A stretch of 64,000 bases of DNA. Source: a virus. Taxonomy: Duplodnaviria; Caudoviricetes. The position numbers and the translations under genes are program-made. The DNA is taken from positions 70,909-134,908 of IMG/VR virus record IMGVR_UViG_3300013307_000671. The stretch is one strand, 5' to 3'. Below are positions 2,781 through 63,177 of this stretch, piece after piece (the stretch's first letter is position 1; each line of letters starts with the position of its first letter). The notes below the pieces were generated by a model. The model searched no databases. It was not told where the DNA came from and saw only the letters and a program-made list of their open reading frames with translations.

Positions 2781-3470
2781 TTAAAAAATATCGTCTTTAT
2801 TCCAACCCAGCAATGCTGCCAGAAATGACCGTGTTTTTTCGGAGTATTTCTGATCGCTATTATCACCATGAATGATGTAATACACTTTGCGGGCAATCAC
2901 CACATAAACAAACAGGAACGGCACGAACCACAGACGGTTGAAACGCTGCAGCTTGCTGGCATCGTCTGCCTGATTATTACTTTTTACGATGTAATACTTC
3001 GCATAGCGATCATCGTATTCATTTGGGAACAGAAAATCGTATAAATCATACAGCGTCTTAACGTTGTTCTCGCTCAGAACAAACAAGAACTCTTCACGGC
3101 TAAGAGTTTTCTGCCAACCACCTTTGTAGCCACTCGCCTTAGCCACAAACTCTTCACCGATAAGACGTGCCACCCACTGACCTGCAGGCGTTCTTTCATC
3201 AAAGCCCGTATATCCCGTCATCACATAACGCACGGGCGCAATGAAAATCCAGAAGACTAACGTGAACCAGATGCGATTAAGACGTTGTTGAAGCGTTGTA
3301 GGGGCATTGCCACGAGTTTTATCTACAATGTTATATGAACTACTGATTTTATCATCACCGTCATACAAGGCGTTTACAGCATCATCCAGCGTTTCTGCTT
3401 TTTCCTTTTTCAAAAGCGCATCCAAACCATAACGAGACAGCTCATGTTGCCATTTTTGAACAAAAAACAT
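2781..3470 (-). CDS. membrane protein with internal tandem duplication
   Basis: Two repeats of WQ..LSR...TL.D....L / QR.NR.WF plus a hydrophobic helix. Confidence 0.8.
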   Translation of the reverse strand: MFFVQKWQHELSRYGLDALLKKEKAETLDDAVNALYDGDDKISSSYNIVDKTRGNAPTTLQQRLNRIWFTLVFWIFIAPVRYVMTGYTGFDERTPAGQWVARLIGEEFVAKASGYKGGWQKTLSREEFLFVLSENNVKTLYDLYDFLFPNEYDDRYAKYYIVKSNNQADDASKLQRFNRLWFVPFLFVYVVIARKVYYIIHGDNSDQKYSEKTRSFLAALLGWNKDDIF

Positions 3471-3528
3471 AACGATTTCCTCTCAGGATTAAAGCGTTAT
3501 TTTACCATAATGTCTTAATGCAAACAAC

Positions 3529-3552
3529 AAAAAACCGCCCGAAGGCGGCTTT
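3529..3552 (-). terminator. intrinsic terminator, cUUCGg loop
   Basis: AAGCCGCC-TTCG-GGCGGTTTTTT. Confidence 0.85.
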
Positions 3553-3553
3553 A

Positions 3554-4180
3554 TTATTTGTGAAGTTTAACTTGATCGGTGATGCCTTTCACCGCCTCAG
3601 CAAAGGCAAGCATCCACTGAATATCATGGTTTTCCTGCTTACCTACGATGAATGTCCATTTGCCTTCAAACAACTCCGCAGTGTAGACAGCCTTATTGTT
3701 GATGTAGGCTTTAAACACCTTTTTCATTGCCCCGCCGTAAGCCGATTCCATATAATCATTCAGCTTAACAACATACTCAGGCATCTTCGCTTTTTCATCT
3801 TGCTCGTGTTTTGCTTTTTTATCGCTTGCCAACGCATAGGCTTCAACCATTGCCCGGACGTAAGCCTTTGCTTTACCAATATTAGTTGGAAGCGCAGAAG
3901 ACGATCCTACCATCCATAAATCCAGCATCATCGGATTGAACATGAACTTAATCACTTCATATCCATCTACCAGACCCACAACACCCGATAACACTTCTTT
4001 TACCTCAACAACACCATCAACATCGCCTTCTAAAGGATGCAAAGCCTTCGCAAACTCCGCAATGTGCGCACCTGCTTTGTTGAAGTCAGAAGATAATAAC
4101 GTTGAGCTACCGACAATATGCCCGCCCATCAGATCAGAAATAGTGATGACATTCAGATTTTGCTCAGCGACGTTGTTCAT
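3554..4180 (-). CDS. hypothetical protein
   Basis: ORF; start moved to MNNVAEQ (RBS AGGT), as the upstream part overlaps the promoter. Confidence 0.75.
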   Translation of the reverse strand: MNNVAEQNLNVITISDLMGGHIVGSSTLLSSDFNKAGAHIAEFAKALHPLEGDVDGVVEVKEVLSGVVGLVDGYEVIKFMFNPMMLDLWMVGSSSALPTNIGKAKAYVRAMVEAYALASDKKAKHEQDEKAKMPEYVVKLNDYMESAYGGAMKKVFKAYINNKAVYTAELFEGKWTFIVGKQENHDIQWMLAFAEAVKGITDQVKLHK

Positions 4181-4278
4181 GTGTTTACCTATAGTGTGAA
4201 GTAACTGTTTTGTTTCGATAGAAAGATTATATGACAACATTAAGTGAACCGCAAGAGAAATCTTGCGGTTTTTATAGA

Positions 4279-4716
4279 TTAAGCGGAGATACTCAGAGAA
4301 GCCTTATGCTCTTTTTCCAGATCAAGCATTTCTTCGCATGGCGCATCACGCAAAGCCTCAGTCCAAATCTCAACAGTTTTCTTGAGATCCACATCCTGAT
4401 ATTTATACACGCCAACATCATCGATATCACACAGAAGGTTACCTTCAAAACTTGATGGTGAGAATGGCAGAGAATAAACCACGAAATCACCGTTTTTCAT
4501 AACCACCGTGCGCCCGTGAAAACCTTCGATTTCCGCTTTAACTGCAACGATTTCATGCAGCTTGTAGTAAGAAACAATCTCAAGAGCAATATCGATTGCC
4601 TCTTCCTTTTCAGCAAAAACACTTTCTTTATGCATGGCATAACCATTTTCGGTGCGACCATAACTTTCATCGCCAAAAGTGGCACCATCTTTATTAACTT
4701 CTACTGATGCAGACAT
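4279..4716 (-). CDS. acidic hypothetical protein
   Basis: ORF, RBS AGGAGA. Confidence 0.8.
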   Translation of the reverse strand: MSASVEVNKDGATFGDESYGRTENGYAMHKESVFAEKEEAIDIALEIVSYYKLHEIVAVKAEIEGFHGRTVVMKNGDFVVYSLPFSPSSFEGNLLCDIDDVGVYKYQDVDLKKTVEIWTEALRDAPCEEMLDLEKEHKASLSISA

Positions 4717-4750
4717 AAACTCTCCTGAATATGAAATGATTTGGCGCTAC

Positions 4751-5065
4751 TTACGCCACAATAGACCAGTCATTCAACTTCGTGATCTTCTGCAGAGCCG
4801 CTAAGACTTGCTTCGCATTTTTATCGCTGTAATCCGTGATCGCATCACGTAAAGCTGCCCTCAGTGCATCACCTTCACCCTGATAGCCTCTTTTCAGGCC
4901 TGCGTTAAACATGACATTGGATAAGCCCATGACAACGCCAAACTGATTTACCATAACAATACGACCATTCTCAAAGCAAGTCAGCGTATCAGTATTCCCC
5001 GAACTATCTTTACGCGCAAACTTCATTTTCTTTACAACTACTTTTTCAGTCGTCGCCATTTTCAT
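4751..5065 (-). CDS. hypothetical protein
   Basis: ORF, RBS GAGGA. Confidence 0.8.
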   Translation of the reverse strand: MKMATTEKVVVKKMKFARKDSSGNTDTLTCFENGRIVMVNQFGVVMGLSNVMFNAGLKRGYQGEGDALRAALRDAITDYSDKNAKQVLAALQKITKLNDWSIVA

Positions 5066-5130
5066 ATCCTCTCAGATTAATGACAATATGATATCACACG
5101 ACATTATGAAATAAAAGCATTATCTGCGCA

Positions 5131-5637
5131 TTACTTCATTAAATCATAGATATTTTTAAGCTCGTCCGGCTTAACACCTTTTCTTCCTCGTGGATTCCAG
5201 TTTACGTCATACTGGTTATCCACGCCGCTGTTTACCTGAATACCTATGAAATCAAACTGAGACAGATCTTTAGCTTTCAAATACACTGCTAAATCTGGCA
5301 CATGATTAACATAGCCATCAATAAAACCGCTCATATCCGCATCCCATGCTTCAAGGTCAGCAACAAAAGAAGGCAGCATTTCTACCGGGATGACCGTATA
5401 GTCATATGTGGCTAACAACACTGTTTTGTGATGATGTGGCAGTCTGCTATCCTTATACAGAGGCCAAAGCTTATCGTAATCGCTATCTTCAGGCATACGC
5501 TCAAAATAGTCCAGACCAAGATATTGCTTGAAATAAGCCGCCCATACCATCAGGCTTAAACCACGACCATTTTTAAAACTGGTTAACCACTGCGTTTTTT
5601 GACCCTCTTTGATGCCATAAATAACCGATTCACTCAT
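5131..5637 (-). CDS. hypothetical protein
   Basis: ORF, RBS AAGGGG. Confidence 0.8.
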   Translation of the reverse strand: MSESVIYGIKEGQKTQWLTSFKNGRGLSLMVWAAYFKQYLGLDYFERMPEDSDYDKLWPLYKDSRLPHHHKTVLLATYDYTVIPVEMLPSFVADLEAWDADMSGFIDGYVNHVPDLAVYLKAKDLSQFDFIGIQVNSGVDNQYDVNWNPRGRKGVKPDELKNIYDLMK

Positions 5638-5704
5638 AAAAACCCCTTAAAATGATAATCTTCTCCAAAAGAAAAAGAGAGCCTAAGCCCTCTCTTTTAT
5701 TCTA

Positions 5705-6079
5705 TCATGCAGCTTTCGTAGAAACAAATGGACTGCTGTGATCACCAAAGCTTAAGCGCGTATAGTAGGAAGGGACACTGCCATAATCACCATCTTCAGC
5801 GATAATATGATTTTTACTATCCAGTGCATCCAGAATAGCTTCAATGGCCTGACCCACTTCAACATTAACAAAGTCCTTAGCGCGTGAGAAAGTGTTCACA
5901 TCAACATGAGGACGCTGAGTTTCTGGCTTAACATCCGTCAGCTCAATCGGCGCAGACTTGATCATCACGCGAAGCGTCGAATAGTTGTAAACTTTAAAAG
6001 ATGCTTTCCAGCCTTTCGGTAAAACAGCCTTAACACGTTTTACCAGCTCTGCTTTCAGTTCTTTGCTTACGTAGCCCAT
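5705..6079 (-). CDS. conserved phage/plasmid protein (LPD29-like), paralogue of 62364-62774
   Basis: M(G/A)Y.SKE.KA..V..VKAVLPK.WKASF shared with paralogue. Confidence 0.75.
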   Translation of the reverse strand: MGYVSKELKAELVKRVKAVLPKGWKASFKVYNYSTLRVMIKSAPIELTDVKPETQRPHVDVNTFSRAKDFVNVEVGQAIEAILDALDSKNHIIAEDGDYGSVPSYYTRLSFGDHSSPFVSTKAA

Positions 6080-6111
6080 TTTGACAATCCCATTCTCGTT
6101 TCGATAAAAAC

Positions 6112-6140
6112 AGTATAGGCTTTAATGACAACAACGTCAA
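6112..6140 (-). promoter_or_regulatory. sigma70 promoter with motif inside the spacer
   Basis: TTGACG-TTG-TTGTCA-TTAAAGCC-TATACT, then TTTTATCGAAACG. Confidence 0.85.
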
Positions 6141-6160
6141 TCTTTTTTTACCGCGATATG

Positions 6161-6183
6161 AAAAAACCGCCCGGAGGCGGCTT
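6161..6183 (-). terminator. intrinsic terminator, cUCCGg loop
   Basis: AAGCCGCC-TCCG-GGCGGTTTTTT. Confidence 0.85.
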
Positions 6184-6189
6184 GTTAGT

Positions 6190-6684
6190 TTAGGGCATCT
6201 TTACTTCGTCATCTTTGACTTTCTCAACTGTTTTCCCGTCCGGCTTCACTTCTATCACACGTTCTGAGGGAAACTTGAATGAAGCGTATCGGAGCAGCCA
6301 TAAAGAACCACATAATACCAGAATGCCTACGCAGTAAAACACAATAACTCTGAAATCTTCGCCATGATCGGTAATCAGGCCAATCAGATGACGCGTCATA
6401 GCCGTTATAGCAATGTAAATGATAAAACGGATAGGTAGATGGTTTGTCTTGAAGTAAACACCTACCATTGCGCCTAACTCAAGATAAATGAACAGCGTTA
6501 GCACGTTTTCAATGCCCGGCTTGCCCATATCCAAAACATGACACAACTCAATGATAGACGCCCAAATAACGACACCACCAATCATGAACAAGCCGAGATA
6601 ATGGAATGTTCCGATCAGCGCATTTCCAGAAAAGTCTACCCACTCCTTAATCTGACTACCCTTAGCCTTCAAGTTTTCCATCAT
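6190..6684 (-). CDS. psiE: phosphate-starvation-inducible PsiE-family membrane protein
   Basis: 4 TM helices; LFIYLELGAMVGVYFKTNHLPIRFIIYIAITAMTR matches the PsiE signature. Confidence 0.8.
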   Translation of the reverse strand: MMENLKAKGSQIKEWVDFSGNALIGTFHYLGLFMIGGVVIWASIIELCHVLDMGKPGIENVLTLFIYLELGAMVGVYFKTNHLPIRFIIYIAITAMTRHLIGLITDHGEDFRVIVFYCVGILVLCGSLWLLRYASFKFPSERVIEVKPDGKTVEKVKDDEVKMP

Positions 6685-9042: not shown

Positions 9043-9762
9043 TTAAAGATAAACCATTTTTTTTGTTACTACATCGAAATGCAGGAGCGTCAACTCACTT
9101 TTACTTCCGTAAGTATCAATATAATACCGATTCTGGAAACGTAGCGGCTCAGGAAGCGTTGTATGACCATGAATCAGATAATCTACACCAGATACACTAG
9201 GAAGCTCATCCGCGTCCTCTACAAGCACTCTGCGAATCACAGTCCGGTCCCACATAAGATTAGCCCGGTAGCCTTTATTTCGCTTAGCCTTCCTGATAAT
9301 CTTATGCCATTGCTGAGGCTTATCATTATCAAATGGCACACCACCATGAATCACACCAAAGCTCACTCCTGCCTGTTCAACTTCTAAAAGCAACGAGAAA
9401 TGACTCAGGAGCAGTTTTTTATATTTCTTAAGGTTAGACTCGCCTAACTGCTTAACGGTCGCCTCAGAGCCATTGCGAGCGTCATTAAACCATTTCTCAG
9501 GCTTAGTGTCATGCTCAAGCAGAAAGTTATCATGATTGCCTATTACACCATAACAGTTCGGCGTTTCCATGAAGAAGTTTATCACCTCCGCAATCTTCGG
9601 ACCACGATCAACCAGATCACCTTCAGAAATAAGATAATCCCGACCAAACTGAAAGCCGACTTCTTTCAACTTTCGAAGTAGTTCATGATATTGCCCATGA
9701 ATATCACCGACAAAAAATAAACGGCTATCTGTGGGGATGGCTACTTTTTTATATATTTTCAT
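9043..9762 (-). CDS. metallophosphoesterase, Ser/Thr protein phosphatase (PphA/lambda NinI-like)
   Basis: GDIHG, GDLVDRG, GNHD, HGG, HGHT, IDT motifs. Confidence 0.9.
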   Translation of the reverse strand: MKIYKKVAIPTDSRLFFVGDIHGQYHELLRKLKEVGFQFGRDYLISEGDLVDRGPKIAEVINFFMETPNCYGVIGNHDNFLLEHDTKPEKWFNDARNGSEATVKQLGESNLKKYKKLLLSHFSLLLEVEQAGVSFGVIHGGVPFDNDKPQQWHKIIRKAKRNKGYRANLMWDRTVIRRVLVEDADELPSVSGVDYLIHGHTTLPEPLRFQNRYYIDTYGSKSELTLLHFDVVTKKMVYL

Positions 9763-14955: not shown

Positions 14956-15840
14956 TTAATGAGCTTTTCGCCCCATCATTTTTAGCACCAGATCATGAAT
15001 CAACACAACTACAATACCCACTACCAAAGCCACTACCGCATTTCCGCCCATTGAGACCAAAGAACCCGCCCAGCCTGCCGGAGAAATATGCGTGATAAAC
15101 TCAGCAACCGGATGAAGGCCATGAACAATGATGCCACCACCCACCAAAAACATCGCCACCAGACCAATCAGCGACAGGGCTTTCATCAACCACGGCACCA
15201 CGTTAATAAAACCACGACCAACCAGCTTTGCCACCGCTGATTTTTTAGCATCCAGCCAGAAACCAATATCATCCAGTTTTACGATCAGAGCCACAATACC
15301 ATACACAAATACGGTAAAGCCTACGCCTAAAATACTCAGTGCGATGATCTTCTGCAGCAGCGGATAAGCGCTAATTGCACTTAAGGAAATCACAATAATC
15401 TCAGCCGAAAGAATAAAGTCAGTTCTGACCGCGCCTTTAATCTTTTTCTTCTCTTGCTTGAGCATCTCTTCTTTAGAAAGCTCCAGGTTTGCAAGATGTT
15501 GCTCCTGATGCGCCTGAACCTTTTCTTTATGGAAAAACTTCTCTTTGAGGTTTTCCACACCTTCAAAACATAAGAAGGCACCACCTACCATCAGCAGAGG
15601 GATCATTAACCACGGCGCAAATACGCTAATCAGCAGTGCAGCAGGCACCAGAATCAGCTTGTTAATCAGCGATCCCTTAAATACACCCCACACCACAGGA
15701 AGCTCACGATTGGGCTTGACGCCAGAGACCTGCTCAGCATTTAACGCAAGGTCATCACCTAACACACCGACCGTCTTACTCGCCGCCGTCTTAGTCATCG
15801 TCAGAATGTCATCCAGAACCATTAACAGTCCACCAACCAT
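14956..15840 (-). CDS. yedI: inner membrane protein YedI (DUF808 family)
   Basis: GVLGDDLALNAEQVSGV..NRELPVVWGV.KGSLINK, IKGAVRTDFILSAEI, AMFLVGGGIIVHG match enterobacterial YedI. Confidence 0.9.
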   Translation of the reverse strand: MVGGLLMVLDDILTMTKTAASKTVGVLGDDLALNAEQVSGVKPNRELPVVWGVFKGSLINKLILVPAALLISVFAPWLMIPLLMVGGAFLCFEGVENLKEKFFHKEKVQAHQEQHLANLELSKEEMLKQEKKKIKGAVRTDFILSAEIIVISLSAISAYPLLQKIIALSILGVGFTVFVYGIVALIVKLDDIGFWLDAKKSAVAKLVGRGFINVVPWLMKALSLIGLVAMFLVGGGIIVHGLHPVAEFITHISPAGWAGSLVSMGGNAVVALVVGIVVVLIHDLVLKMMGRKAH

Positions 15841-19567: not shown

Positions 19568-19972
19568 TTAAATCAGTTCTTCTTCCAGTGCTGCCTTAAG
19601 AGGCACATCTTCATAATCGCGACCGCTTACCAGCCACTGCTCGCCATCCCATACATAAAGATACTCCTGCTCGTCAATGACTTCATCAGAAACACGCATC
19701 TTAATGCTTTCTTCATCCATCAGGCGATCACGCGCATAATATACACTGTAGCCCTTAACTGGAGTGTCAAAGCTATGATTGCTTCCCGGCGTATCACAGC
19801 TCTTATCGATATAAGACAGAGCACCACCAGAAACCAGCTTCTCAGCAAGCTCCTGTGAGTTGTAATGCTCCAAAAGCATCTTGCCGTTAGCACTCAAATA
19901 ACCGTTATTGTGGCAATACACCACATGATACTTATCACCTACTTTAACATTGATGTTTGAACGCGTTGCCAT
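19568..19972 (-). CDS. conserved phage hypothetical (M.TRS.I...YCH..GY family)
   Basis: MATRSNI, YCHNNGY, LLEHY, EYLYVW motifs. Confidence 0.8.
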   Translation of the reverse strand: MATRSNINVKVGDKYHVVYCHNNGYLSANGKMLLEHYNSQELAEKLVSGGALSYIDKSCDTPGSNHSFDTPVKGYSVYYARDRLMDEESIKMRVSDEVIDEQEYLYVWDGEQWLVSGRDYEDVPLKAALEEELI

Positions 19973-20771: not shown

Positions 20772-21737
20772 CTAAGCAGCTAAAGAAGCCCATTTTTCAT
20801 GAATAATCTCTTTGCCATAAAACACACATCCATAGCCATTTTCTTCAATGACTTCCAGCATGTGATCAATAGCTTTCTCTATATCTTCATTAAACTTTAT
20901 CCTAAGCAAACTAATGCCACGAGACTCACAATAACGGTTTTTTATCTCGTCGTTTCTCTTCTGACTCAGAAACCCTTCAGTTCCACCAAAAGCATCAACT
21001 TTAGTAAAATGCTGCTTACCATCAAACTCAATCAACAGGTTTAATGATTCAATATAGAAATCAAACTTGAGCCTAACGCCGTTTTTACTGCGACATCCAA
21101 TGAACTTCGCTTGCTCTTTAAACGATAAACCGTAGCCATTCAAAGCATTTGCTACAGCCGTTTCACCTTTCGAGGCGCGGCATTTAGGGCAACCATCACC
21201 ACAAAGATGATTTCCCGCCTTCTGAGAAAACTCTCCGTGAATACCACAGATAATCAATACTTTTTGGTGCGAAGATGTATACACAACTTTGCTGTAATCA
21301 TATTTACCATGATGCACATCTATCGCTTTTTCGATGAAGGCCTCTGCGTCAGATCTGATAGCATCATATTGACAAGCCCGGCAACCTTTTCCATTCAAAT
21401 GCTCTCCGGCACGCTGCTCAAAATCCCCATGTTTCTCACATGTGATTGTAACCTTCTTTTTATTATTCACGTAAACTACTTTTTCATAAGAATAACGTGA
21501 ACCATGAACAGCAATAGCTCTACTCACGAAATCTGATTCTACTCTTTTCTCTCTCGAACATGCATAGCAAGACCTGCCTGCTAAATGCTCGTTAGCACGC
21601 TGCTCAAACAAGCCATGCTTTTCACACTTAATCTTAACTTTCGTGCCGCTGTTTACATAAACAGTCTCTTCATAGCCATACAGGTCGCCATGAATGGCAA
21701 CCGCTCGCCTAATAAATTTTTCTGTTTTCTCACACAT
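20772..21737 (-). CDS. putative homing endonuclease: 3 Zn-binding repeats plus PD-(D/E)xK (DUF559/Vsr-like) nuclease
   Basis: 3x HG..Y.Y..V.Y...KV.I.C..HG.F.Q....HL.G..C..C; SKGE, FDFY, IEFDGKQH, D..KN..C...LLRI. Confidence 0.8.
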   Translation of the reverse strand: MCEKTEKFIRRAVAIHGDLYGYEETVYVNSGTKVKIKCEKHGLFEQRANEHLAGRSCYACSREKRVESDFVSRAIAVHGSRYSYEKVVYVNNKKKVTITCEKHGDFEQRAGEHLNGKGCRACQYDAIRSDAEAFIEKAIDVHHGKYDYSKVVYTSSHQKVLIICGIHGEFSQKAGNHLCGDGCPKCRASKGETAVANALNGYGLSFKEQAKFIGCRSKNGVRLKFDFYIESLNLLIEFDGKQHFTKVDAFGGTEGFLSQKRNDEIKNRYCESRGISLLRIKFNEDIEKAIDHMLEVIEENGYGCVFYGKEIIHEKWASLAA

Positions 21738-21875
21738 AAGCCACCAAAGCCACCTCATTTTAACTTCCTTCATTATAGCAATATAATATTGTCTTTTCAA
21801 GCTTTATTTGCCGACCTTGTTGATTTATTGCCCAAAAAAGATATAACTTAGCTATTAAACTTCAAGGAGAATACT

Positions 21876-28766: not shown

Positions 28767-29234
28767 TTATTTAAGTGATCTTAAAACCGGAAGCTCCGGC
28801 AAAAAGTCAGAATCATGATTCACGCCAGACATTATTTTATCAGACTGCCAATCATCTTGTTTGCCCACTGTCATATGAAGCCTGTAATAGGGATTTAAGC
28901 CCATTTCCTGACGCATTGCTACTATGTCGTCAGAATAGACATTAAGCGACCAGAAGCTCCAATGACGCTCAATAAAGCCATATTGAATTTCAAGCTCCTG
29001 ACCTTCATACTTCATCCATGTTTTATGGCTACTATCAGCCTCCTCCGGCTTAACGATAGTCACATGCGTTCCGAACATTGGCGTATGCAATCTAACTCCA
29101 TATTGTCTCATGATATGCCATTGGTAATAACTCGCCAGATCAGCGCTTTCTACATCCAGCACGACAATATCCGTCTTGGATTTTATTCCTTTCCTTAAAG
29201 GACTGTAAGCCACAATGCCTTTTATCTTATACAT
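28767..29234 (-). CDS. 2H phosphoesterase family protein
   Basis: Two HxT motifs: THVTIV and LHMTVG, about 60 aa apart. Confidence 0.7.
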   Translation of the reverse strand: MYKIKGIVAYSPLRKGIKSKTDIVVLDVESADLASYYQWHIMRQYGVRLHTPMFGTHVTIVKPEEADSSHKTWMKYEGQELEIQYGFIERHWSFWSLNVYSDDIVAMRQEMGLNPYYRLHMTVGKQDDWQSDKIMSGVNHDSDFLPELPVLRSLK

Positions 29235-47318: not shown

Positions 47319-47411
47319 CGCGATCTCCTGCTTTCAATACCATTGATTATAGCAGAACGCCTTTATTGTCACAACCTTTATATGAAAAAACCGCCCGAAG
47401 GCGGCTTGTTT

Positions 47412-47960
47412 TTAAGCTTCGTCGTTAAGCTCTAACCAGCTATGATAATGTTTATCATAGCTTTCAATCTCATAACCTTCAAAGCCCTTCTTACGCGCAT
47501 TTTTCATGCCCGCTTTTGTCGCATTGAGCTTATGCCCCAGCGGTGTTCCAACAAAATAGGTTTCAAAACGCAACATCTTGGCACCCAAACCATCAGCCAG
47601 TTCGAGAACCGCTCCAACGTTATCAAACGTTTTTACTACCTCAGACTTTAATAATACCTCAACACGAATAATCTCAAAGGAGTCCTTTTTGAAAGGGCCT
47701 GGCTTCTCTTCAAGACGACTCAACAAATCATAAATAGCCTTTTCAGCCTCTTTTACTGAGACGAAACGTAAAACTTCATACTCATTTTCATAATCATTAA
47801 TAGCTTGAACCACCAGATCCCAAAAACCTTTCTCACGAAGATAAGCATCAGAAAAATCATGACCGTAATGCTCTACATCCTTTAAAAATAACTCAGGACG
47901 ATTTTTAAGACGCACCACAAAAAACTCTTTATTACCACTCATTTTAATCGCTTTAGCCAT
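47412..47960 (-). CDS. hypothetical protein
   Basis: RBS GGAG. Confidence 0.8.
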   Translation of the reverse strand: MAKAIKMSGNKEFFVVRLKNRPELFLKDVEHYGHDFSDAYLREKGFWDLVVQAINDYENEYEVLRFVSVKEAEKAIYDLLSRLEEKPGPFKKDSFEIIRVEVLLKSEVVKTFDNVGAVLELADGLGAKMLRFETYFVGTPLGHKLNATKAGMKNARKKGFEGYEIESYDKHYHSWLELNDEA

Positions 47961-48088
47961 TTTTACTACTCCAGTAAGATATTAGTAGAATGCCTTAACT
48001 CAATGAAACCACTATACACACTTATGACAACACATTCAAGCTTTTTCTTAAGCCAAACAAAAACCGCCAGTAGGCGGTTCTGTCTGCT

Positions 48089-48937
48089 TTATTTCTTTGA
48101 GATCCTGCCTCTCTTAAAATCAAGTGTCAGCCCTTCTCCTCGATAATCCTGAAATGTTTTACCATCACTCCTGTTAATCAACAGCAGTGGAATCTGCATA
48201 TAACTCTCTTTCGACTTATGAAAAATATCATGATGCGCCAGCAGAGATGTCATCGAAGCATAACCTACCACCGCACCCACCTTCTCAAACAGTGAAAAGT
48301 ATTTTATCAGGCTCTCACGGTCTTCCAGATCCATAAATAAAATATCTGTGTCCCTCAAACTCGCACGGTCCTCTAAAGTCTTTACCTTCCCCGTTAGACG
48401 TCCAAATGTCTGGTTTTCCTTAAAAAGCCTGATATCCCCAATCTGATAGCCAAACGCCTTTATCTCAGAAATCAATAATGCCGTCTTTTCCTCGTTCGAT
48501 TCATCCGGGTTAATCAATATGTCCAGCTTCTCAACATCCTCAGCCAAGCCTTCGCTGATAATCTGCTCCATCAAATTTTTAGGGAAACTCACCCTTCCAT
48601 CTTCCAGATAATGATAGCCAAACTCTTCATGATTTTTCTGATAAGCCTTCCTTAAACGCTCACTCTCCAGCTTTCTCACATTTTCCGGCTCAGCCAGCCT
48701 ATCCCTTACTTTAGCTAAAACCTTCTTGTATTCCACATCTTCTTGCTCAAGAATGTCTATTCCACCTTCAACATCAATAAGTGCAGCATCACCATTTAAC
48801 ACCCGACCTACCTGATACTCATTAATACCCACAAGACACTCCGATAAAGTCTTTTCAGCTTCATCGAAATATCCCTGCAGCATTTTATCACGCACCATGT
48901 TCTGAATCGGATTTGCTCTGGTTTGAAAGTGGCTCAT
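48089..48937 (-). CDS. hypothetical protein
   Basis: 282-aa ORF, RBS AAGGA. Confidence 0.8.
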   Translation of the reverse strand: MSHFQTRANPIQNMVRDKMLQGYFDEAEKTLSECLVGINEYQVGRVLNGDAALIDVEGGIDILEQEDVEYKKVLAKVRDRLAEPENVRKLESERLRKAYQKNHEEFGYHYLEDGRVSFPKNLMEQIISEGLAEDVEKLDILINPDESNEEKTALLISEIKAFGYQIGDIRLFKENQTFGRLTGKVKTLEDRASLRDTDILFMDLEDRESLIKYFSLFEKVGAVVGYASMTSLLAHHDIFHKSKESYMQIPLLLINRSDGKTFQDYRGEGLTLDFKRGRISKK

Positions 48938-49036
48938 CTTTTATCCTTATTATTGTTAATACCTCATTATATCACGCTTATGACAACCATATCAAACCTT
49001 TTGGACATATAAAAAAACCGCCCGGAGGCGGCTCTT

Positions 49037-49633
49037 TTAAAGACCTTTCTGTGTCATTCCCACTGGAACAAAATCTACAGGCAAAGCATATTTTTCCGAC
49101 CAGCCCAACGCATTAATCAGATCAGCTATCTCTTCCTTCACTGTCGAGGCAAAGTTATTCTGAATAAAGTTATCAAATGCTTTCTTATGAGGATAGTTCA
49201 TGAACTGAACAGGCATCACAGCTACCGTCTCACTCATAAAATGCTCAGCATCTGCAGCACCCTTCACAGCCTCAACCATACGCTCTGGAGAAACCTCTAC
49301 CGTCATTAAATGCGTTACCCGGCTCTTAGTCTGGTGAGAAGACACCAACCGCGCAGCAGCAATTTCAGCCTCACTTAATGTCAGGCCAATCTCTTCCCGA
49401 CATTCACGGCTTACCGCTTCTTTCAGTGTCTCACCCGACTCAACTTCGCCACCTACAAAACCCTTCACGCCGTCCCAACGCTGCAGCATCAGCACCAATG
49501 GCACCACCGTTTCCCGCGCCTCAGCAGAAAGACCTTCATAATCCTTCCACACCTTACTCTCTGACACCAAAGCCACAAACACCGCTTGCGCCATATTTTC
49601 AGGATTGCTTCCCAACGCGATTGGCTTAATCAT
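49037..49633 (-). CDS. Nudix hydrolase, NUDT16/X29-like
   Basis: Nudix box GGEVESGETLKEAVSRECREEIG preceded by LM.QRWDG..GF; SSH..RV.H and F..N.F motifs as in NUDT16. Confidence 0.85.
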   Translation of the reverse strand: MIKPIALGSNPENMAQAVFVALVSESKVWKDYEGLSAEARETVVPLVLMLQRWDGVKGFVGGEVESGETLKEAVSRECREEIGLTLSEAEIAAARLVSSHQTKSRVTHLMTVEVSPERMVEAVKGAADAEHFMSETVAVMPVQFMNYPHKKAFDNFIQNNFASTVKEEIADLINALGWSEKYALPVDFVPVGMTQKGL

Positions 49634-49736
49634 GAAATACTCCAAATAGGTTAGTCTTTTATCCAGCTATACTTTCATAACATCAGATCAGTATAGCTGC
49701 TAATGACAATACTCGCCAGTCTCTTCTTTCAATCTT

Positions 49737-49931
49737 TTAAAATATATCTTCGTTAGTATCCCACCATGATCCACTACTGCGCCCATAATCCGAACGGCTT
49801 TTTTCCTGGACTTCTTTCACTTTTCTCTGATAATCAGCGTCCTTATTAAACCCACCACGATTGGCCTTTCCTACATCTGCCCATCCATCATGACTCACGC
49901 CATTACGGTCTTTTTTGGATGTCATATACAT
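49737..49931 (-). CDS. small hydrophilic protein
   Basis: RBS GAGGT, motif-bearing promoter. Confidence 0.7.
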   Translation of the reverse strand: MYMTSKKDRNGVSHDGWADVGKANRGGFNKDADYQRKVKEVQEKSRSDYGRSSGSWWDTNEDIF

Positions 49932-50082
49932 TATACTTACCTCTCTATCAAGAAATGGTTTAATCTTATTTTTTCCTACTCAATGAAAAAAGTATACCTT
50001 CAACCAATCTTAATGACAACTCATTTTTGCCTTTTATTATTAACTCGATAAAACAAAAAAGCAGCCCGAAGGCCGCTTTTCT

Positions 50083-50685
50083 TTACTTCTTCTCTTTAAG
50101 CTCAGCCAGACGCTTCTTATACGCCGCCTTTACCTCATCCCAATCAGGCTTATCACTCACCACAGATCGTGGCTCAAAATCAGGATACGCCGCCTTACTT
50201 TCAGCTTGACGCTCTTTCATCACACCTTCCAGATAAGCGAAATCTTGCTGCATCATCTCAAAGGCGTTCGCTTCCAGCACAAAACCATAGGGAGCCAGCA
50301 GCTCTAACAACTCAGGATTGTTCTTCTGAGCCTTAACCACTTTTGCGTATTCCTTCAACGCATAGTCCAGCGCAGCATACAGCTTAGCCAGATACACATA
50401 ACCTACATCGTTGCGCACGATCACATACGCACAGCCGAAATCTTTTAATACACCCATCAGGGCAGATTTCACATTATGCAGATTATCCATATCCTTCGCC
50501 ATCGCATTCAGACGCTTAGTGAACTTCTGCGTCACCTTCTTCTTCTCAATGTCGTTCTCACCCACCGACACAAACTCACTCTCAAATACCGCCTGAGAAT
50601 GCAGCATAAAACGCTCATGACCTACCAGCGCCGCCGCCAACGACAGAACCGCTACCTTCGATGAATCTACAGAAACTTTTGACAT
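50083..50685 (-). CDS. hypothetical protein
   Basis: Start MSKVSV downstream of promoter. Confidence 0.8.
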   Translation of the reverse strand: MSKVSVDSSKVAVLSLAAALVGHERFMLHSQAVFESEFVSVGENDIEKKKVTQKFTKRLNAMAKDMDNLHNVKSALMGVLKDFGCAYVIVRNDVGYVYLAKLYAALDYALKEYAKVVKAQKNNPELLELLAPYGFVLEANAFEMMQQDFAYLEGVMKERQAESKAAYPDFEPRSVVSDKPDWDEVKAAYKKRLAELKEKK

Positions 50686-50879
50686 TGTTTTTTCTCTTTT
50701 AGTTAAATCATAGCCCGCACAGCAAGCTCTCAGTAAAAACGAGTATATCAACAATACGACAACACATCAAGATAAATCTTTAATGACCAGACTCTCTTGA
50801 AAAACTTTTACATCCCTCTTTATTTTTCAACCGATCCATTTCTTAACAAAAAAGCCGCCCGGAGGCAGCTCTTTTAATC

Positions 50880-51164: not shown

Positions 51165-51206
51165 GCATTATAAAATATTAAACCACCCGAAGGTGGTTCT
51201 TTTATA

Positions 51207-51535: not shown

Positions 51536-52069
51536 TTATTCCTCACGAATCGCATAAGGATCATCGTTATCCTCTAGCTCATCTTCGTCTTCCTCATCCC
51601 AACGGTCATCATCCCAGCTATCATCATCTTCTTCTTCCTGATCAGACCCATCAGTAACAATGGTCAGATGACCGAATGTAAACGTGCCATCTTCATCACG
51701 GTCAACGCGGAAGTCTTCAGGGAAGAGAATCACCTTCGCATGACCATCAGCATCAAGCTTCTTAGCCTGAGCAATCAAATCCGCCGACAGCAGTTGAACT
51801 ACGCCAAGAATACCCGCATCTACACTGTATTTGTTGCCAATATTATCAGAATACTGACCATCACCATGCGCCGTGTTCGCGTAAAACGCAGAAAATACTT
51901 TACGACGACCCGCCTTGATATCTACAGCTTTACCATCATTATCAAAACCTAACACCAGATCATCATAAACCTTATCGGTTTTGTCCGTCAGTAAATAGCA
52001 CAGATCTCCGACATAATACGTGCCAGCAGGCATCAACGCAGTTTTACGAGCAGTAATCGATACAGTCAT
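51536..52069 (-). CDS. hypothetical protein, family B (PAG.YYVGDLCY...TA.GDG...VDAG..G), acidic tail
   Basis: Three paralogues: 51536, 52176, 56731. Confidence 0.85.
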   Translation of the reverse strand: MTVSITARKTALMPAGTYYVGDLCYLLTDKTDKVYDDLVLGFDNDGKAVDIKAGRRKVFSAFYANTAHGDGQYSDNIGNKYSVDAGILGVVQLLSADLIAQAKKLDADGHAKVILFPEDFRVDRDEDGTFTFGHLTIVTDGSDQEEEDDDSWDDDRWDEEDEDELEDNDDPYAIREE

Positions 52070-52175: not shown

Positions 52176-52595
52176 TTATTCAAAATCCGTGTTAATCCGA
52201 ATATGACCAAACTCAAACACGCCATTACTCGCGTCAACCTCAAATGGTTGAGGAAAATCAATCACCTTACCATTTTTACGCTTATCCAGCGTCTGCGCTT
52301 TTTTCAACAGGCTCTCAGAGGTCAATTGAACCACACCAATCAAACCCGCATCAACACCATACTGATTTTTAAAGTTATCACGGTAAATACCATCACCATA
52401 AGCCGTATGATTGTAAAATGCTAAAAATGGCAGGCGGCGAGGCGCTGTAATCTCAACAACAGCTTCTTCTTTTCCACTGTCGCACACATACTGCTCGTAA
52501 ATCCGATCAGGCAGCAAATAACACAGATCGCCTACATAATACTTACCCGCAGGCAAAACATTACTATCTTGCTCAACCACAGAAATGTTTTTCAT
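52176..52595 (-). CDS. hypothetical protein, family B
   Basis: PAGKYYVGDLCYLL, TAYGDG, VDAGLIG. Confidence 0.85.
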   Translation of the reverse strand: MKNISVVEQDSNVLPAGKYYVGDLCYLLPDRIYEQYVCDSGKEEAVVEITAPRRLPFLAFYNHTAYGDGIYRDNFKNQYGVDAGLIGVVQLTSESLLKKAQTLDKRKNGKVIDFPQPFEVDASNGVFEFGHIRINTDFE

Positions 52596-52673
52596 CGTCT
52601 CTCCCGTCAAAGTGCAGTAGTTTTTATGACTCAATAAACACACTATATCATAACACTTTATTAAATGACAACA

Positions 52674-55474: not shown

Positions 55475-55792
55475 CTATCGCAATACCATCTCACTTTCCA
55501 TATGGACCAGGATTTTCTCAGCCTGCTCAACCAAGCCCGGATTCAACACCTTCAGCACATCATAAACCTTCTGATCTGCCTTTATCGCCTCAACTAACGC
55601 ATACATCTCCGGCGCAATCACCATAACCTTAGCGTTAGCCTCAAACTCTTTACGTTGCCGCTCGCTGGTGGTATCTTCCATTTCAACCAGAATCTGAGCA
55701 AAAGCTCCATGATCATCACTCGACAAGCTGATATGCCCATCTAACCAGCCTTCGTCCAAATACCACTGCCCTTTTGTGCCTGTAAAGCTCAT
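55475..55792 (-). CDS. phage hypothetical (T.G.W...ANA.L...APE family), cf. 62899
   Basis: TKGQW...EANAKVMVIAPEM. Confidence 0.75.
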   Translation of the reverse strand: MSFTGTKGQWYLDEGWLDGHISLSSDDHGAFAQILVEMEDTTSERQRKEFEANAKVMVIAPEMYALVEAIKADQKVYDVLKVLNPGLVEQAEKILVHMESEMVLR

Positions 55793-56045: not shown

Positions 56046-56291
56046 TTAGAAACAATCGTAAAGTTTGTTCTGAACGTTCACCAGAGCAATATCAATATTC
56101 GTCATACCTTCCTCATAACGAATCTTACCATTCTTCTCTTTCTTTACATACAACGTAGGATCTTCCATCGCACACAAATGTGCCATGTTGTTGTATTTGT
56201 TAACATGACGGTTAATCGCACTCCAGATGCCAGCACCTTTCTCAATCTCGCGCTTAACGTTGTCTTTCAGAATAGTAAAGTTGCCGCTCAT
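56046..56291 (-). CDS. hypothetical protein, paralogue of 35241-35510
   Basis: RBS GAGGA, shared motifs. Confidence 0.75.
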   Translation of the reverse strand: MSGNFTILKDNVKREIEKGAGIWSAINRHVNKYNNMAHLCAMEDPTLYVKKEKNGKIRYEEGMTNIDIALVNVQNKLYDCF

Positions 56292-56351
56292 GTCCGCTTC
56301 CTCATCAGGTTTTCAAATATTATATGACAACATTAAACGCAGCGCAAGCTT

Positions 56352-56600
56352 TTAATAGCACTCACCAGAAGGATAGTTACTTTCAACTTTTAGCTTGAGC
56401 AACTCTCCTTTAGGGAAACGACCTTTAAGATAAGCAACCGCCTCTTTATACGTCCTAAAACCTAAGTCTTTTGCCAATGAATGCTGACCCGATAAAAGTT
56501 CATAACCTTCACGATACCAGAACAATCCCAGCACCTTATGCTCCACCAAATAAGAAATGCCTTCGCTGCTAGACATCTGCACTACTCGCATCTTTTTCAT
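56352..56600 (-). CDS. hypothetical protein (Y.VE...LGLFW family)
   Basis: RBS GGAG. Confidence 0.75.
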   Translation of the reverse strand: MKKMRVVQMSSSEGISYLVEHKVLGLFWYREGYELLSGQHSLAKDLGFRTYKEAVAYLKGRFPKGELLKLKVESNYPSGECY

Positions 56601-56730
56601 CTCAGACTCCGCCTCTATCGCAATACCTATATTATATGACAATACCAAGTGTTTCTCCACGCTTTTCTTAAAATAAAAAAGCCACCCGCAGGTAGCTCTT
56701 AATCTATTCCATTATAATAACCAACAGTGA

Positions 56731-57228
56731 TTATCTTGTGTTTATCTCAATATCACCAAAGTTAAACACACCGCGTTTCGATGACACCTCAAACGCCTCA
56801 ACAAAATCAATCACCTGACCACTACCTCTCGCCTCCACTGCTCTGGCGCTGGCCTCTAAATCACTATCCGTCAACTCCACTATGCCAATCAATCCAGCAT
56901 CTACAGAATAAGAACGCCCTTGATTATCACTAAATCCACCATCACCATGCGCCGTCATACCAAAATACGCTAAGAAAGAAATATCCTCACATTCAACGAA
57001 ACGCTTCTTCCTGCGATAATCCGTCCCGCAAATATAACCACAAACATAATGGAAATAAATACTTTTCAATACTCCGTAGTTCTCACCTTTATCCAGCAAA
57101 TAACATAAATCACCTACATAATAACGCCCAGCAGGAAATAGCTTATTCGCAGCTTTGATCGACACCGACTTATATTTATCGCTATCGTCAGTTAACTCTA
57201 TCTCTTCCCAATCGTCATATTGACTCAT
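56731..57228 (-). CDS. hypothetical protein, family B
   Basis: PAGRYYVGDLCYLL, TAHGDG, VDAGLIG. Confidence 0.85.
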   Translation of the reverse strand: MSQYDDWEEIELTDDSDKYKSVSIKAANKLFPAGRYYVGDLCYLLDKGENYGVLKSIYFHYVCGYICGTDYRRKKRFVECEDISFLAYFGMTAHGDGGFSDNQGRSYSVDAGLIGIVELTDSDLEASARAVEARGSGQVIDFVEAFEVSSKRGVFNFGDIEINTR

Positions 57229-57252
57229 ACTTTATCCTCTTAGCTGTTAATA

Positions 57253-57963
57253 TTATTCGCCTTTAGCTTTCTTCTCAAAAAATGCCAGACGTTCTACCAT
57301 CTTCGCCTGATAACATGCCCTCGCCTCAGCTTCATCCAAAAACACCTCGTGATACATACAACCATCACTCAGCCCGCCATCATTATCCGTATTTAACTGC
57401 AGCTCCTCACGCTCTCCACCCACATCAAGACGAAACGCCCCGGTAAATCTCACTTTATTACCATTCACCAGACTATACTTGATATCAAAAATCTCTCCTG
57501 TATATAGCCCTTCCTCCAGTAAGTTCTTCTCCAGAACCACCAGATACACCTTATCGCCCACTTTCAGCTCAGGATATTCTATCTCATACGTCTTCTCTTT
57601 ATCCAAATAACTAACCGTACCACTCTCCACATGAGCAAGCTTCTTCCTCAGCCTGCGATCCGCTTCCTCTATCATGCCCTTAGCCACAACATAATCCTGC
57701 CTACGCGCTCCCCATGACAGCAAACGTAATATCACAGGCTTACTCTCATAAGCCGCAACCTCACGCTCCGCATTCTCAGTCTCTTCACGATAACGCTCCA
57801 GCGCCTTACCCCGAAAATCCTCAGCAGCCTCTTCCGCCGTCAAAAAAGCCTCATAAGGGAAATAACCCGTATGGTAATGCTCTTCTACCGCAAAACCCTT
57901 CAACGCATTAATCACAAACACCGTTCCAAACTTTTCTTTCATCTGATCATGTGTGTAAGTCAT
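57253..57963 (-). CDS. hypothetical protein
   Basis: 236-aa ORF, RBS GGGGGA. Confidence 0.8.
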   Translation of the reverse strand: MTYTHDQMKEKFGTVFVINALKGFAVEEHYHTGYFPYEAFLTAEEAAEDFRGKALERYREETENAEREVAAYESKPVILRLLSWGARRQDYVVAKGMIEEADRRLRKKLAHVESGTVSYLDKEKTYEIEYPELKVGDKVYLVVLEKNLLEEGLYTGEIFDIKYSLVNGNKVRFTGAFRLDVGGEREELQLNTDNDGGLSDGCMYHEVFLDEAEARACYQAKMVERLAFFEKKAKGE

Positions 57964-62363: not shown

Positions 62364-62774
62364 TTACGCTTTCACCGCATAAGGCCTTTTGTAATGTCCA
62401 AACTGCAGATCGACATAATGACCTACATCATGGTAATCCCTCATCAGATCACTGTTGTTGTAGTTGTCCAGATTCAACGCCGCAACAACCTTCTCCAGAA
62501 TCTCACGCGCGCCTTCATCCTTAATATCACGATCAAGACGACCCAAGTGATGCACCTCTACATGACCCAACACTCCATCAAAACGACGATAATCACCCTG
62601 AGCATCACACGCCTCTTTACCAAAAATCTGCTCCAGCGTTAACGGCGTGCTCTTGATCGTCATCACAATGCCCGAAGCATTCCGAATCGCAAAGCTCGCC
62701 TTCCAATCTTTCGGCAATACAGCCTTTACCGCCGCAACAATCTTCGCTTTATGCTCTTTGCTCAAGTAAGCCAT
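62364..62774 (-). CDS. LPD29-like conserved protein, paralogue of 5705-6079
   Basis: C-terminal NY.NSD.M.DY.DV..YV. Confidence 0.8.
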   Translation of the reverse strand: MAYLSKEHKAKIVAAVKAVLPKDWKASFAIRNASGIVMTIKSTPLTLEQIFGKEACDAQGDYRRFDGVLGHVEVHHLGRLDRDIKDEGAREILEKVVAALNLDNYNNSDLMRDYHDVGHYVDLQFGHYKRPYAVKA

Positions 62775-62898: not shown

Positions 62899-63177
62899 TT
62901 AGCCCTTATTCAGCGCTTTACCAATCACACGTTTCGACCCAGTGATAGCTACACCATTAGGAACCTCGCCTTTCTCCGCACACTCCACAAAGTGCTGCAA
63001 CGCAGCCAGCAGCTCAGGAGCCGTTCCCGCAAGGATACCATTATGAATCGCTTCCTCATCACAGCTTCCCGCCGTGCTCAGGCTAAAACCACTTTTGCCT
63101 AATACGACATCTTTACCGTTAGCGCCAACCAGATCACCATTCACTTTCTTCCACGGACCCGCAGTAAACTTGCTCAT
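62899..63177 (-). CDS. phage hypothetical (FT.GPW...APELL.AL family)
   Basis: MSKFTAGPW...APELLAAL. Confidence 0.8.
   Translation of the reverse strand: MSKFTAGPWKKVNGDLVGANGKDVVLGKSGFSLSTAGSCDEEAIHNGILAGTAPELLAALQHFVECAEKGEVPNGVAITGSKRVIGKALNKG

Follow-up and report, generated by a model that had tools for sequence, protein, structure and literature searches.

Human NUDT16 and Xenopus X29 (PDB codes 2XSQ, 5W6X, 3COU and 1U20) are described members of a Nudix hydrolase family named Nudt16-like in Pfam (PF22327). NUDT16 is reported to hydrolyse ADP-ribose (ADPR) and protein-bound ADPR (PMC6459841), to remove nicotinamide adenine dinucleotide (NAD), FAD and dephospho-CoA (dpCoA) caps from RNA (PMC7337524), to take ADPR off RNA ends (PMC6582358) and to act on the inosine nucleotides (d)IDP/ITP (PMC4485890). 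A version of the family linked to a Sir2 gene has been catalogued in jumbo phages such as RaK2, GAP32, BF and Asteriusvirus (PHROG 9999; 'configuration 1' of Iyer et al. 2022, PMC9503650), and Aeromonas T4-like phages carry a stand-alone homologue annotated as 'NudE' (Aeh1p351, PX29, phiAS5). The gene considered here lies on the minus strand at positions 49037-49633 of the 64,000-nucleotide stretch that was analysed (the window), which forms the final 64 kb of one 134,908-bp IMG/VR record (IMGVR_UViG_3300013307_000671, positions 70,909 to 134,908) labelled provirus, with a CheckV completeness of 64%. Neither the family nor its occurrence in phages nor the Sir2-linked form is new, all being known or catalogued; the gene adds a new, stand-alone member to the family, located in an unusual element.

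Read from its ATG codon the open reading frame (ORF) encodes a Nudix hydrolase of 198 residues; an alternative TTG start stretches the same minus-strand ORF to 49037-49645 (202-residue form). The ATG start was chosen because GGAG stands ahead of it at a spacing of 6 nt and because 198 residues is the most frequent length among the homologues (14 of 25). The coordinates given in a preliminary description of the window are thereby exact.

49037-49633, minus strand: coding sequence of the NUDT16-family Nudix hydrolase (ORF, PF22327, PHROG 9999, AlphaFold2 model, structure searches)
49640-49643, minus strand: Shine-Dalgarno-like GGAG, 6-nt spacer before the ATG at 49633 (sequence reading)

The gene product is a NUDT16/X29-family Nudix hydrolase. 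PF22327 matches residues 50-175 of the 202-residue form with an expectation value (E) of 1.4e-18 (67.8 bits against a cut-off of 27), whereas the generic Nudix model PF00293 scores lower (E 2.4e-10, 41 bits); PHROG 9999 'nudix hydrolase' matches with E 2.6e-23. In a phmmer search against the PDB human NUDT16 comes out on top (E 4e-8 to 2e-7, query residues 50-184), with further matches to X29 (E 1.3e-6) and TIRR (E 1.6e-5), whereas MutT-type Nudix proteins match the Nudix box alone (E 1e-4 or weaker). A profile of the clade to which the protein belongs (see below) finds X29 with E 4.9e-13 and NUDT16 with E 1.8e-11. The likeness to NUDT16 past the Nudix box, which the preliminary description had noticed, is thus real and far above chance. 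Five of the six motifs listed there (LM..R.DG..GF.GG.V, RE.REE.G, SSH...RV.H, GA..A.....E, and F..N.F followed by Glu) are aligned with NUDT16 by HMMER, SSH...RV.H with a small indel and the Glu after F..N.F one residue further away than originally written. The sixth, ALGS (residues 6-9), is N-terminal of every sequence alignment; residues 1-188, and hence the ALGS region, fall within the structural alignment to the NUDT16 family.

A clustering with ordinary MutT/RppH enzymes, considered in the preliminary description as the alternative, is not observed. MutT, RppH, NudC, NudE, NudF, NudI and NudG were rejected as assignments, the best NCBIfam equivalog reaching 29.2 bits against a cut-off of 156, and all equivalog matches are limited to residues ~47-151 around the Nudix box. 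PADLOC-DB contains no full-length match, its sole match being PDC-S07 (E 1.9e-7) over residues 58-113, again the Nudix box. T4 NudE.1 is a phage Nudix enzyme whose substrates are adenine dinucleotides and NAD-RNA, and thus offers a functional analogy for a role in NAD/ADPR turnover, but kinship beyond the Nudix box was rejected: the BLASTP E is 0.14, and T4 NudE.1 belongs to another family, matching PF00293 alone and not PF22327. Since T4 NudE.1 matches the generic Nudix model only, 'NudE' on the Aeromonas phage homologues is no more than a name. The latter do match PF22327 (Aeh1 E 1.5e-14) and stand alone in an early-gene region, but they share 33-34% identity with the window protein over about two thirds of its length and fall in another clade.

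The AlphaFold2 model, built on an alignment of 18 sequences (mean predicted local distance difference test score, pLDDT, 92.8), exhibits a NUDT16-type fold consisting of the Nudix core, an N-terminal extension and a C-terminal base-binding helix. In a Foldseek search against the PDB, ranks 1-37 are all NUDT16, X29 or TIRR (E 2.5e-12 to 2.2e-10, TM 0.66-0.81), the next family being a CoA pyrophosphatase (E 2.9e-8). Structural superimposition by VIA-align on 22 NUDT16-family entries yields Z scores of 18.2-20.0 with root mean square deviations of 2.2-3.0 Å for 156-180 residues, comprising model residues 1-188, while the best non-NUDT16 Nudix structure reaches a Z score of 15.0.

The Nudix box is complete and reads G62-x5-E68-x7-R76-E77-C78-x-E80-E81-x-G83-L84 (numbering of the 198-residue form, as used from here on). 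Functional residues of NUDT16 were carried over by means of the phmmer-versus-PDB alignment, with roles as given for NUDT16 in PMC4485890 and PMC6459841:

NUDT16 Arg50, here Arg52: phosphate clamp
NUDT16 Asp52, here Asp54: phosphate clamp
NUDT16 Glu76, here Glu77: metal ligand of the Nudix box
NUDT16 Glu79/80, here Glu80/81: metal ligands of the Nudix box
NUDT16 Glu136, here Glu135: third metal ligand
NUDT16 Gly56-Phe57-Pro58, here Gly58-Phe59-Val60: loop touching the base
NUDT16 Phe61, here Glu63: active-site mouth (in this family completed by loops of a homodimer)
NUDT16 Ile164, here Ala162: base pocket
NUDT16 Ser166, here Thr164: base pocket
NUDT16 Gln170, here Glu168: base pocket

Within the base pocket the Gly-Phe-Val segment is kept, Ser166 is replaced by Thr164 and Gln170 by Glu168, and the region of His24 is outside all sequence alignments; at a guess, Phe19 is the candidate counterpart of this stacking histidine. 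A total of 182 sequences was gathered, namely the window protein, seven phage or plasmid proteins and stored database matches, of which 174 were aligned and eight were dropped for matching fewer than 130 profile positions. Arg52 is found in 172 of the aligned sequences, Glu77 in 173, Glu80 and Glu81 in all 174 and Glu135 in 172. Phe19 is present in 163 of the 174; at position 168, 143 sequences have Glu and 20 have Gln. Arg52, Asp54 and Glu135 are invariant within the clade of the window protein, and 17 homologues with 46-95% identity share 44 invariant columns. As the Nudix box is complete and the metal and phosphate ligands are present and conserved, the enzyme looks catalytically competent. 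In this it is unlike TIRR (NUDT16L1, syndesmos), a non-catalytic binding protein of the same fold and family; the window protein retains every catalytic residue.

Taken side by side with NUDT16 and X29, the window protein has in common with them PF22327, the predicted fold of residues 1-188 (Z ~20), the Nudix box, the Arg/Asp phosphate clamp, the Glu acting as third metal ligand and the G-F-x-G-G loop. It differs from them by an overall identity of 20-24%, by Glu in place of Gln170, Val in place of Pro58 and Glu63 in place of Phe61, as well as by its location in a prokaryotic phage-related element, without small nucleolar RNA or 7-methylguanosine-cap biology.

The preliminary description had called the gene eukaryote-type, a label that is overstated. 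Among 1.84 billion representative proteins of genomic and metagenomic origin, 869 clusters match the clade profile with E<=1e-3, 349 of them with E<=1e-10, and PF22327 scores above its cut-off in one of 14 control prokaryote genomes. By tblastn, 79 phage records contain relatives, none of which reaches 60% identity, the hosts being Escherichia (32), Aeromonas (13), Klebsiella (10), Salmonella (8), Erwinia (6), Yersinia (4), Pectobacterium (2), Cronobacter (2) and Serratia (2). Further relatives reside on four Vibrio megaplasmids of ~0.9 Mb. Homologues with 85-95% identity exist in several public assemblies, one of them titled 'NUDIX hydrolase [Serratia sp. Se-RSBMAAmG]'. A scan of GTDB species genomes gave one distant locus and nothing else, and phage and plasmid collections gave no megablast match to parts of the window of 20 kb and 12 kb. 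NUDT16-family enzymes are a sizeable and uncharacterised group in large phages, megaplasmids and bacteria, and are often found together with NAD or ADPR enzymes.

In a FastTree phylogeny of the 174 domains, eukaryotic NUDT16 sequences not being among the rows, the window protein belongs to a clade of 27 rows (support 96), 25 of whose 26 other rows are homologues contained in or found with the 18-sequence alignment. Five Sir2-linked phage proteins and one further match form a clade of their own (support 98). By this tree the window copy is assigned to a stand-alone clade apart from the Sir2-linked phage version. The two share PF22327 and the catalytic residues, and the Sir2-linked gene is likewise located among accessory genes, in phages that have other homologues in common with the present element (up to 61% identity). 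Their mutual identity, however, is ~27-31%, and the loop Phe (G-F-P) is replaced in six of seven Sir2-linked members whereas it is retained in 28 of 28 members of the window clade. Furthermore, contrary to the Sir2-linked version, the window gene is accompanied neither by Sir2 nor by an adjacent PhoH/PIN gene and appears to occupy its own cassette; cREC is neither fused to it, the 198 residues containing the Nudt16-like domain only, nor found among the neighbours scanned with Pfam.

In all five RaK2-like jumbo phages inspected (Asteriusvirus A4, Eneladusvirus BF, fHe-Yen9-04, Mimasvirus CBB and Alcyoneusvirus RaK2) the Nudix gene directly follows Sir2, with overlapping stop and start in A4 and RaK2. 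In BF, CBB, RaK2 and fHe-Yen9-04 the block runs NMNAT, Nampt, Sir2, Nudix, a small membrane protein and PhoH, a PIN domain being noted in CBB; in the A4 stretch Sir2, the Nudix gene and PhoH were seen, NMNAT and Nampt were not. Ahead of Sir2, BF, CBB and fHe-Yen9-04 carry a 148-residue gene annotated as 'RNA ligase', which in Serratia phage BF (gp110, L009:4396-4842) is an Acb1-type 2H enzyme (PF23474, E 3.6e-15) of the anti-CBASS Acb1 family; in CBB and fHe-Yen9-04 the same position is occupied by the gene with the 'RNA ligase' annotation. The BF Nudix domain is fused to cREC (PF20274, E 9.6e-25). The sirtuin-2H-Nudix-cREC-PIN neighbourhood has already been described by Iyer et al. 2022, who propose NAD-dependent RNA-end repair or processing of ADPr>P (PMC9503650). 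On a Vibrio vulnificus megaplasmid the Nudix gene is convergent with an adjoining NADAR gene, and in Aeromonas phage Aeh1 it is placed among the early genes rIIB, ndd and asiA. All 22 longer family members scanned retain PF22327, and 19 are without a second family. The remaining fusions are to ankyrin repeats (P0029), to an HD_4/SpoT-like domain (P0154) and, in P0079, to an N-terminal Ham1/ITPase domain (PF01725, E 4.5e-33; NCBIfam XTP/dITP diphosphatase, E 7.9e-33), the count of Ham1 fusions applying to the best 150 matches listed. The Ham1/ITPase fusion mirrors the pairing of ITPA and NUDT16 in mammals.

It is safe to infer Mg2+-dependent cleavage of the diphosphate in purine nucleoside diphosphates linked to a further group (NDP-X), as in NUDT16. 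The purine nucleotide would be bound in a pocket made up of the N-terminal strand, the G-F-x-G-G loop and the C-terminal helix, with Arg52 and Asp54 holding the diphosphate. An Mg2+ ion held by Glu77, Glu80/81 and Glu135 would activate a water molecule, and NDP-X would be cut into the nucleoside monophosphate and phospho-X. In the proposed setting the host polymerase would transcribe the Nudix gene from its own promoter-to-terminator cassette within the array of a phage-related element, and the element would benefit from the removal of ADPR- or NAD-derived nucleotides in the host cell, the targets being free ADPR-type molecules, signal molecules included, and NAD-type RNA caps.

Membership of the family, unbroken sets of catalytic and phosphate-binding residues and the predicted fold are what the analysis shows; substrate class and a role in conflict with the host we infer. 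ADPR and NAD-type substrates, NAD caps among them, are tentatively placed ahead of inosine nucleotides, because the NAD/ADPR gene context recurs across the family; the destruction of ADPR-type signals and the decapping of NAD-RNA, both suggested in the preliminary description, are plausible on these grounds. Several observations weigh against this preference. The window clade and the Sir2-linked clade lie on opposite sides of a deep split, and as this split is weakly supported (79) and the window clade separate across it, the jumbo-phage context carries over only with caution. The G-F-x-G-G motif, which PMC4485890 ties to a preference for 6-oxopurines, is retained in the window clade and has lost its Phe in the Sir2-linked clade, and the Ham1 fusion of P0079 suggests inosine nucleotides rather than ADPR. 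The position of NUDT16 Gln170 is occupied by Glu, and His24 has no more than a candidate counterpart, Phe19. The SIR2 and SIR2_2 models (PF02146, PF13289) have no match in the 135-kb record, which is 64% complete, or in its 341,648-bp relative G001 described below; Sir2 is not adjacent to the window gene, and a distant copy could lie in the missing part of the record. The flanking genes at 47412-47960, 48089-48937, 49737-49931 and 50083-50754 match no Pfam, PHROG, PADLOC or NCBIfam model. Finally, none of the papers listed in literature searches assays or characterises a prokaryotic or phage member of the NUDT16 family.

The same observations bear on the strongest competitor, which the preliminary description had not considered, an inosine/xanthosine nucleotide diphosphatase hydrolysing (d)IDP, (d)ITP, XDP or GDP and serving either the sanitation of nucleotide pools or the blunting of defences that deaminate adenine nucleotides, namely the Kongming dITP signal and the ITP floods of RADAR and Cad1. 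This is a less likely option than ADPR/NAD turnover, yet one with substantial points in its favour: the window clade has G-F-[V/I/P]-G-G in 27 of 28 members and a carboxylate or amide at position 168 in all 28, and the Ham1 fusion is on the window clade's side of the deep split, its clade-profile score of 106.6 bits (Vibrio protein 101.8) comparing with 50-65 for the Sir2-linked proteins. According to a recent preprint Kongming signals via dIDP to dITP, and T5 Dmp, the sole phage counter-measure described there, removes dAMP and leaves dITP untouched (10.1101/2024.12.20.629578); Cad1 and RADAR are reported to raise ITP (PMC11645235), and the products of these deaminase-based defences are those which NUDT16-type enzymes cut best. 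On the other hand, Ham1 occurs in only one of the 22 longer members, the deep branches of the tree are weak, the pocket residues are equal in the Sir2-linked clade, whose context indicates adenine compounds, and no deaminase-related gene is found around the window Nudix gene. The more specific proposal of a counter-defence 'eraser', which by hydrolysing (d)IDP/(d)ITP would cut the Kongming signal and relieve the RADAR/Cad1 ITP flood, is unlikely. Much the same can be said of a housekeeping-type Nudix enzyme without a role dedicated to conflict, engaged in clean-up of dinucleotides and cofactors or in hydrolysis of (p)ppGpp-type alarmones, which we regard as rather improbable. T4 NudE.1 is indeed described as broad (NAD, NAD-RNA, FAD, ADPR, Ap3A), its loss merely delaying lysis (bioRxiv 10.1101/2024.04.04.588121), NUDT16 is itself promiscuous, and P0154 is fused to the HD_4/SpoT-like domain; but homology to T4 NudE.1 does not extend past the Nudix box, the gene has been kept with 44 invariant columns over 17 homologues of 46-95% identity, a Nudt16-like gene is duplicated in the 342-kb relative G001, and relatives reside in blocks rich in NAD/ADPR and counter-defence enzymes.

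The preliminary description further proposed that the enzyme might reverse ADP-ribosylation-based defences such as DarTG and CmdTAC, a suggestion that fares poorly. NUDT16 is reported to act on ADP-ribosylated proteins as well as on RNA and DNA ends (PMC6459841, PMC6582358), and the Vibrio megaplasmid relative adjoins the NADAR gene. However, NUDT16 cuts the pyrophosphate and the phosphoribose tag stays on the target (PMC6582358), so that a DNA, RNA or protein group modified by DarT or CmdT would remain modified, and neither a macrodomain nor an ARH or NADAR partner able to complete the removal was found among the genes adjoining the window Nudix gene; reversal of such modifications is therefore very improbable. 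Least likely of all, to the point of being hardly credible, is a non-catalytic binding protein in the manner of TIRR. TIRR structures do match the model nearly as well as NUDT16 (Z 18.2-19.2 against 18.5-19.9), but here no residue of the Nudix box is missing and every metal and phosphate ligand is in place, with little or no variation across the family.

NAD/ADPR, as in Thoeris signals and NAD depletion, and inosine nucleotides, as in Kongming dITP and RADAR/Cad1 ITP, are both currencies of bacterial immunity. If the enzyme degraded an immune signal, it would constitute a new class of counter-defence enzyme, otherwise the gene encodes an ordinary accessory Nudix hydrolase. Were it inosine-type signals that are erased, this would be the first known case of an enzyme breaking down an immune signal that consists of a base-modified nucleotide, and it would suggest that the IDPase activity of animal NUDT16 goes back to an old function of the family in nucleotide conflict. 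The interest lies mainly in the substrate question, which is easily testable, the 198-residue protein being soluble-looking.

The transcriptional surroundings of the Nudix gene comprise the following elements:

49011-49034, minus strand: intrinsic-terminator-like hairpin GAGCCGCC-TCCG-GGCGG followed by T7, 2 nt past the stop codon
49737-49931, minus strand: 64-residue ORF directly upstream of the Nudix gene (ORF list)
49991-50019, minus strand: sigma-70-type promoter-like site TTGTCA-17-TATACT (10/12; consensus scan)
48966-48995, minus strand: near-consensus extended -10 promoter of the next gene, after the Nudix terminator-like hairpin

A consensus and hairpin scan found no minus-strand promoter-like or terminator-like site within 49634-49736, and the 64-residue ORF is probably co-transcribed with the Nudix gene. 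The site at 49991-50019 is a candidate start of their common transcript, although a match in a consensus scan is not functional evidence. Between 46.5 and 51.5 kb, 13 terminator-like sites are present compared with 3.2 +/- 1.8 in shuffled sequences, and 18 promoter-like sites compared with 11.1 +/- 3.1. The hairpin pattern CC[GA]CC-YNNN-GG[CT]GG-TTT has 50 matches in the window (both strands, ~30 sites) against 0.03 expected, one of them at 49015-49031 on the minus strand within the hairpin behind the Nudix gene. As this hairpin recurs at ~30 sites and sigma-70-like promoters are interspersed between the genes, the array is read as single-gene cassettes and appears to be a string of dozens of host-polymerase-type promoter-gene-terminator units. 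Contigs from three RNA libraries (two studies), 85-98% alike, span parts of the Nudix ORF and provide a weak hint of expression; DNA carry-over is possible, and transcription is not demonstrable from them. Examples of the recurrent hairpin are located at 47388-47407, 48060-48081, 49011-49034, 50055-50082 and 51180-51199, and when reads from a related isolate run (X2) were compared with the 5-kb stretch, matches were confined to its 25-37-nt terminator hairpins.

In a 93% identical metagenome locus (L034) the 64-residue ORF, the Nudix gene, a 282-residue gene and a 182-residue gene follow each other in the same order as in the window, and the 64-residue ORF, upstream of the Nudix gene, is 98% identical to that of the window. 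Its homologue in G001 is located elsewhere, away from the Nudix gene, and linkage of the two is thus not conserved. In G001-type loci (L006, L037) the 282-residue gene is absent and the homologue of the 182-residue gene directly follows the Nudix gene, with a gap of 4 nt in L037. Relatives of 50% identity (L038, 1525-2723; L039, 435-1564) have a conserved gene of 176/177 residues behind the Nudix gene, its start overlapping the Nudix stop in L039; these genes show no detectable homology to the 182-residue neighbour in the window. None of 12 neighbouring ORFs scanned matches a PADLOC model, and in the protein atlas two flanking genes gave matches below 0.9 without families. The predicted fold of the 182-residue neighbour, modelled with its three homologues, has a pLDDT of 49, too poor for a structure search. 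On a metagenome contig of 98 kb (L036) bearing a copy with 73% identity, the neighbouring genes have no useful PDB match, a weak ankyrin match excepted.

The gene sits in a 135-kb one-directional array of small genes, nearly all on the minus strand and without an assigned family. The recognisable ones include members of several PHROGs of unknown function and genes for HNH homing endonucleases, for PsiE and DUF808, for a 2H-like protein and for a NinI-like phosphatase:

window 28767-29234: 2H phosphoesterase-like protein (2H-SAK 26.3 bits, just below the cut-off; PHROG 12204)
window 9043-9762: NinI-like Ser/Thr phosphatase
window 6190-6684: PsiE-family membrane protein
window 14956-15840: DUF808 membrane protein

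An accessory gene at 19568-19972 has homologues with 54-61% identity in GAP32, CBB, BF and related jumbo phages. The 134,908-bp record is collinear with the region 190-341 kb of G001, a 341,648-bp IMG/VR provirus (GC content 30.6%, 97% complete) with 557 ORFs, 471 of them on one strand and the largest coding for 837 residues; 158 of the 249 ORFs of the shorter record match G001 at E<=1e-5. G001 contains an orthologue of the Nudix gene and, in addition, a second divergent Nudt16-like gene (141745-142251, minus strand, 168 residues, PF22327 E 1.4e-12). The models Gp23 major capsid, Terminase_6C and Phage_sheath_1 have no match in either record, while in the control phage BF they are detected with E values of 9.4e-75, 3.6e-4 and 2e-3, respectively. 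Likewise, no virion protein was found in G001 by Pfam searches with 124 ORFs of at least 165 residues and PHROG searches with 46 of these, the sole PHROG match of the 'tail' category being a T4-type RNA ligase (phrog_562). Besides this RNA ligase, G001 codes for MutS, a Ro/TROVE-like protein, five PilS-type pilins, a shufflon-type PilV N-terminus, PcfJ and a DNA methylase. The element may be a phage, a plasmid or of another type; its earlier designation as a bacterial mobile element is roughly right, the record being an IMG/VR virus record labelled provirus, in which no virion genes were found.

Outside the window, at 3398-6398 of the record (L001), a stand-alone NadM-type NMN adenylyltransferase without the usual Nudix half is encoded. 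Its neighbours are a 6-phosphogluconolactonase-like beta-propeller and a 364-residue protein that matches PDC-S08, a PADLOC candidate, with E 3.9e-34. Genes for HNH homing-type endonucleases are located at 20772-21800 of the window and at 56144-57442 of the full record. The latter, of the RRXRR + HNH type in G001, shares 89% identity with a G001 copy that lies out of collinear order, and recent mobility is suggested by this. Paralogous genes are present as well, namely three members of PHROG 20074 (unknown function) within 6 kb (window 51536-52069, 52176-52643 and 56731-57228) and one pair each of PHROG 10415 (5705-6079 and 62364-62774) and PHROG 1273 (55475-55792 and 62899-63177).

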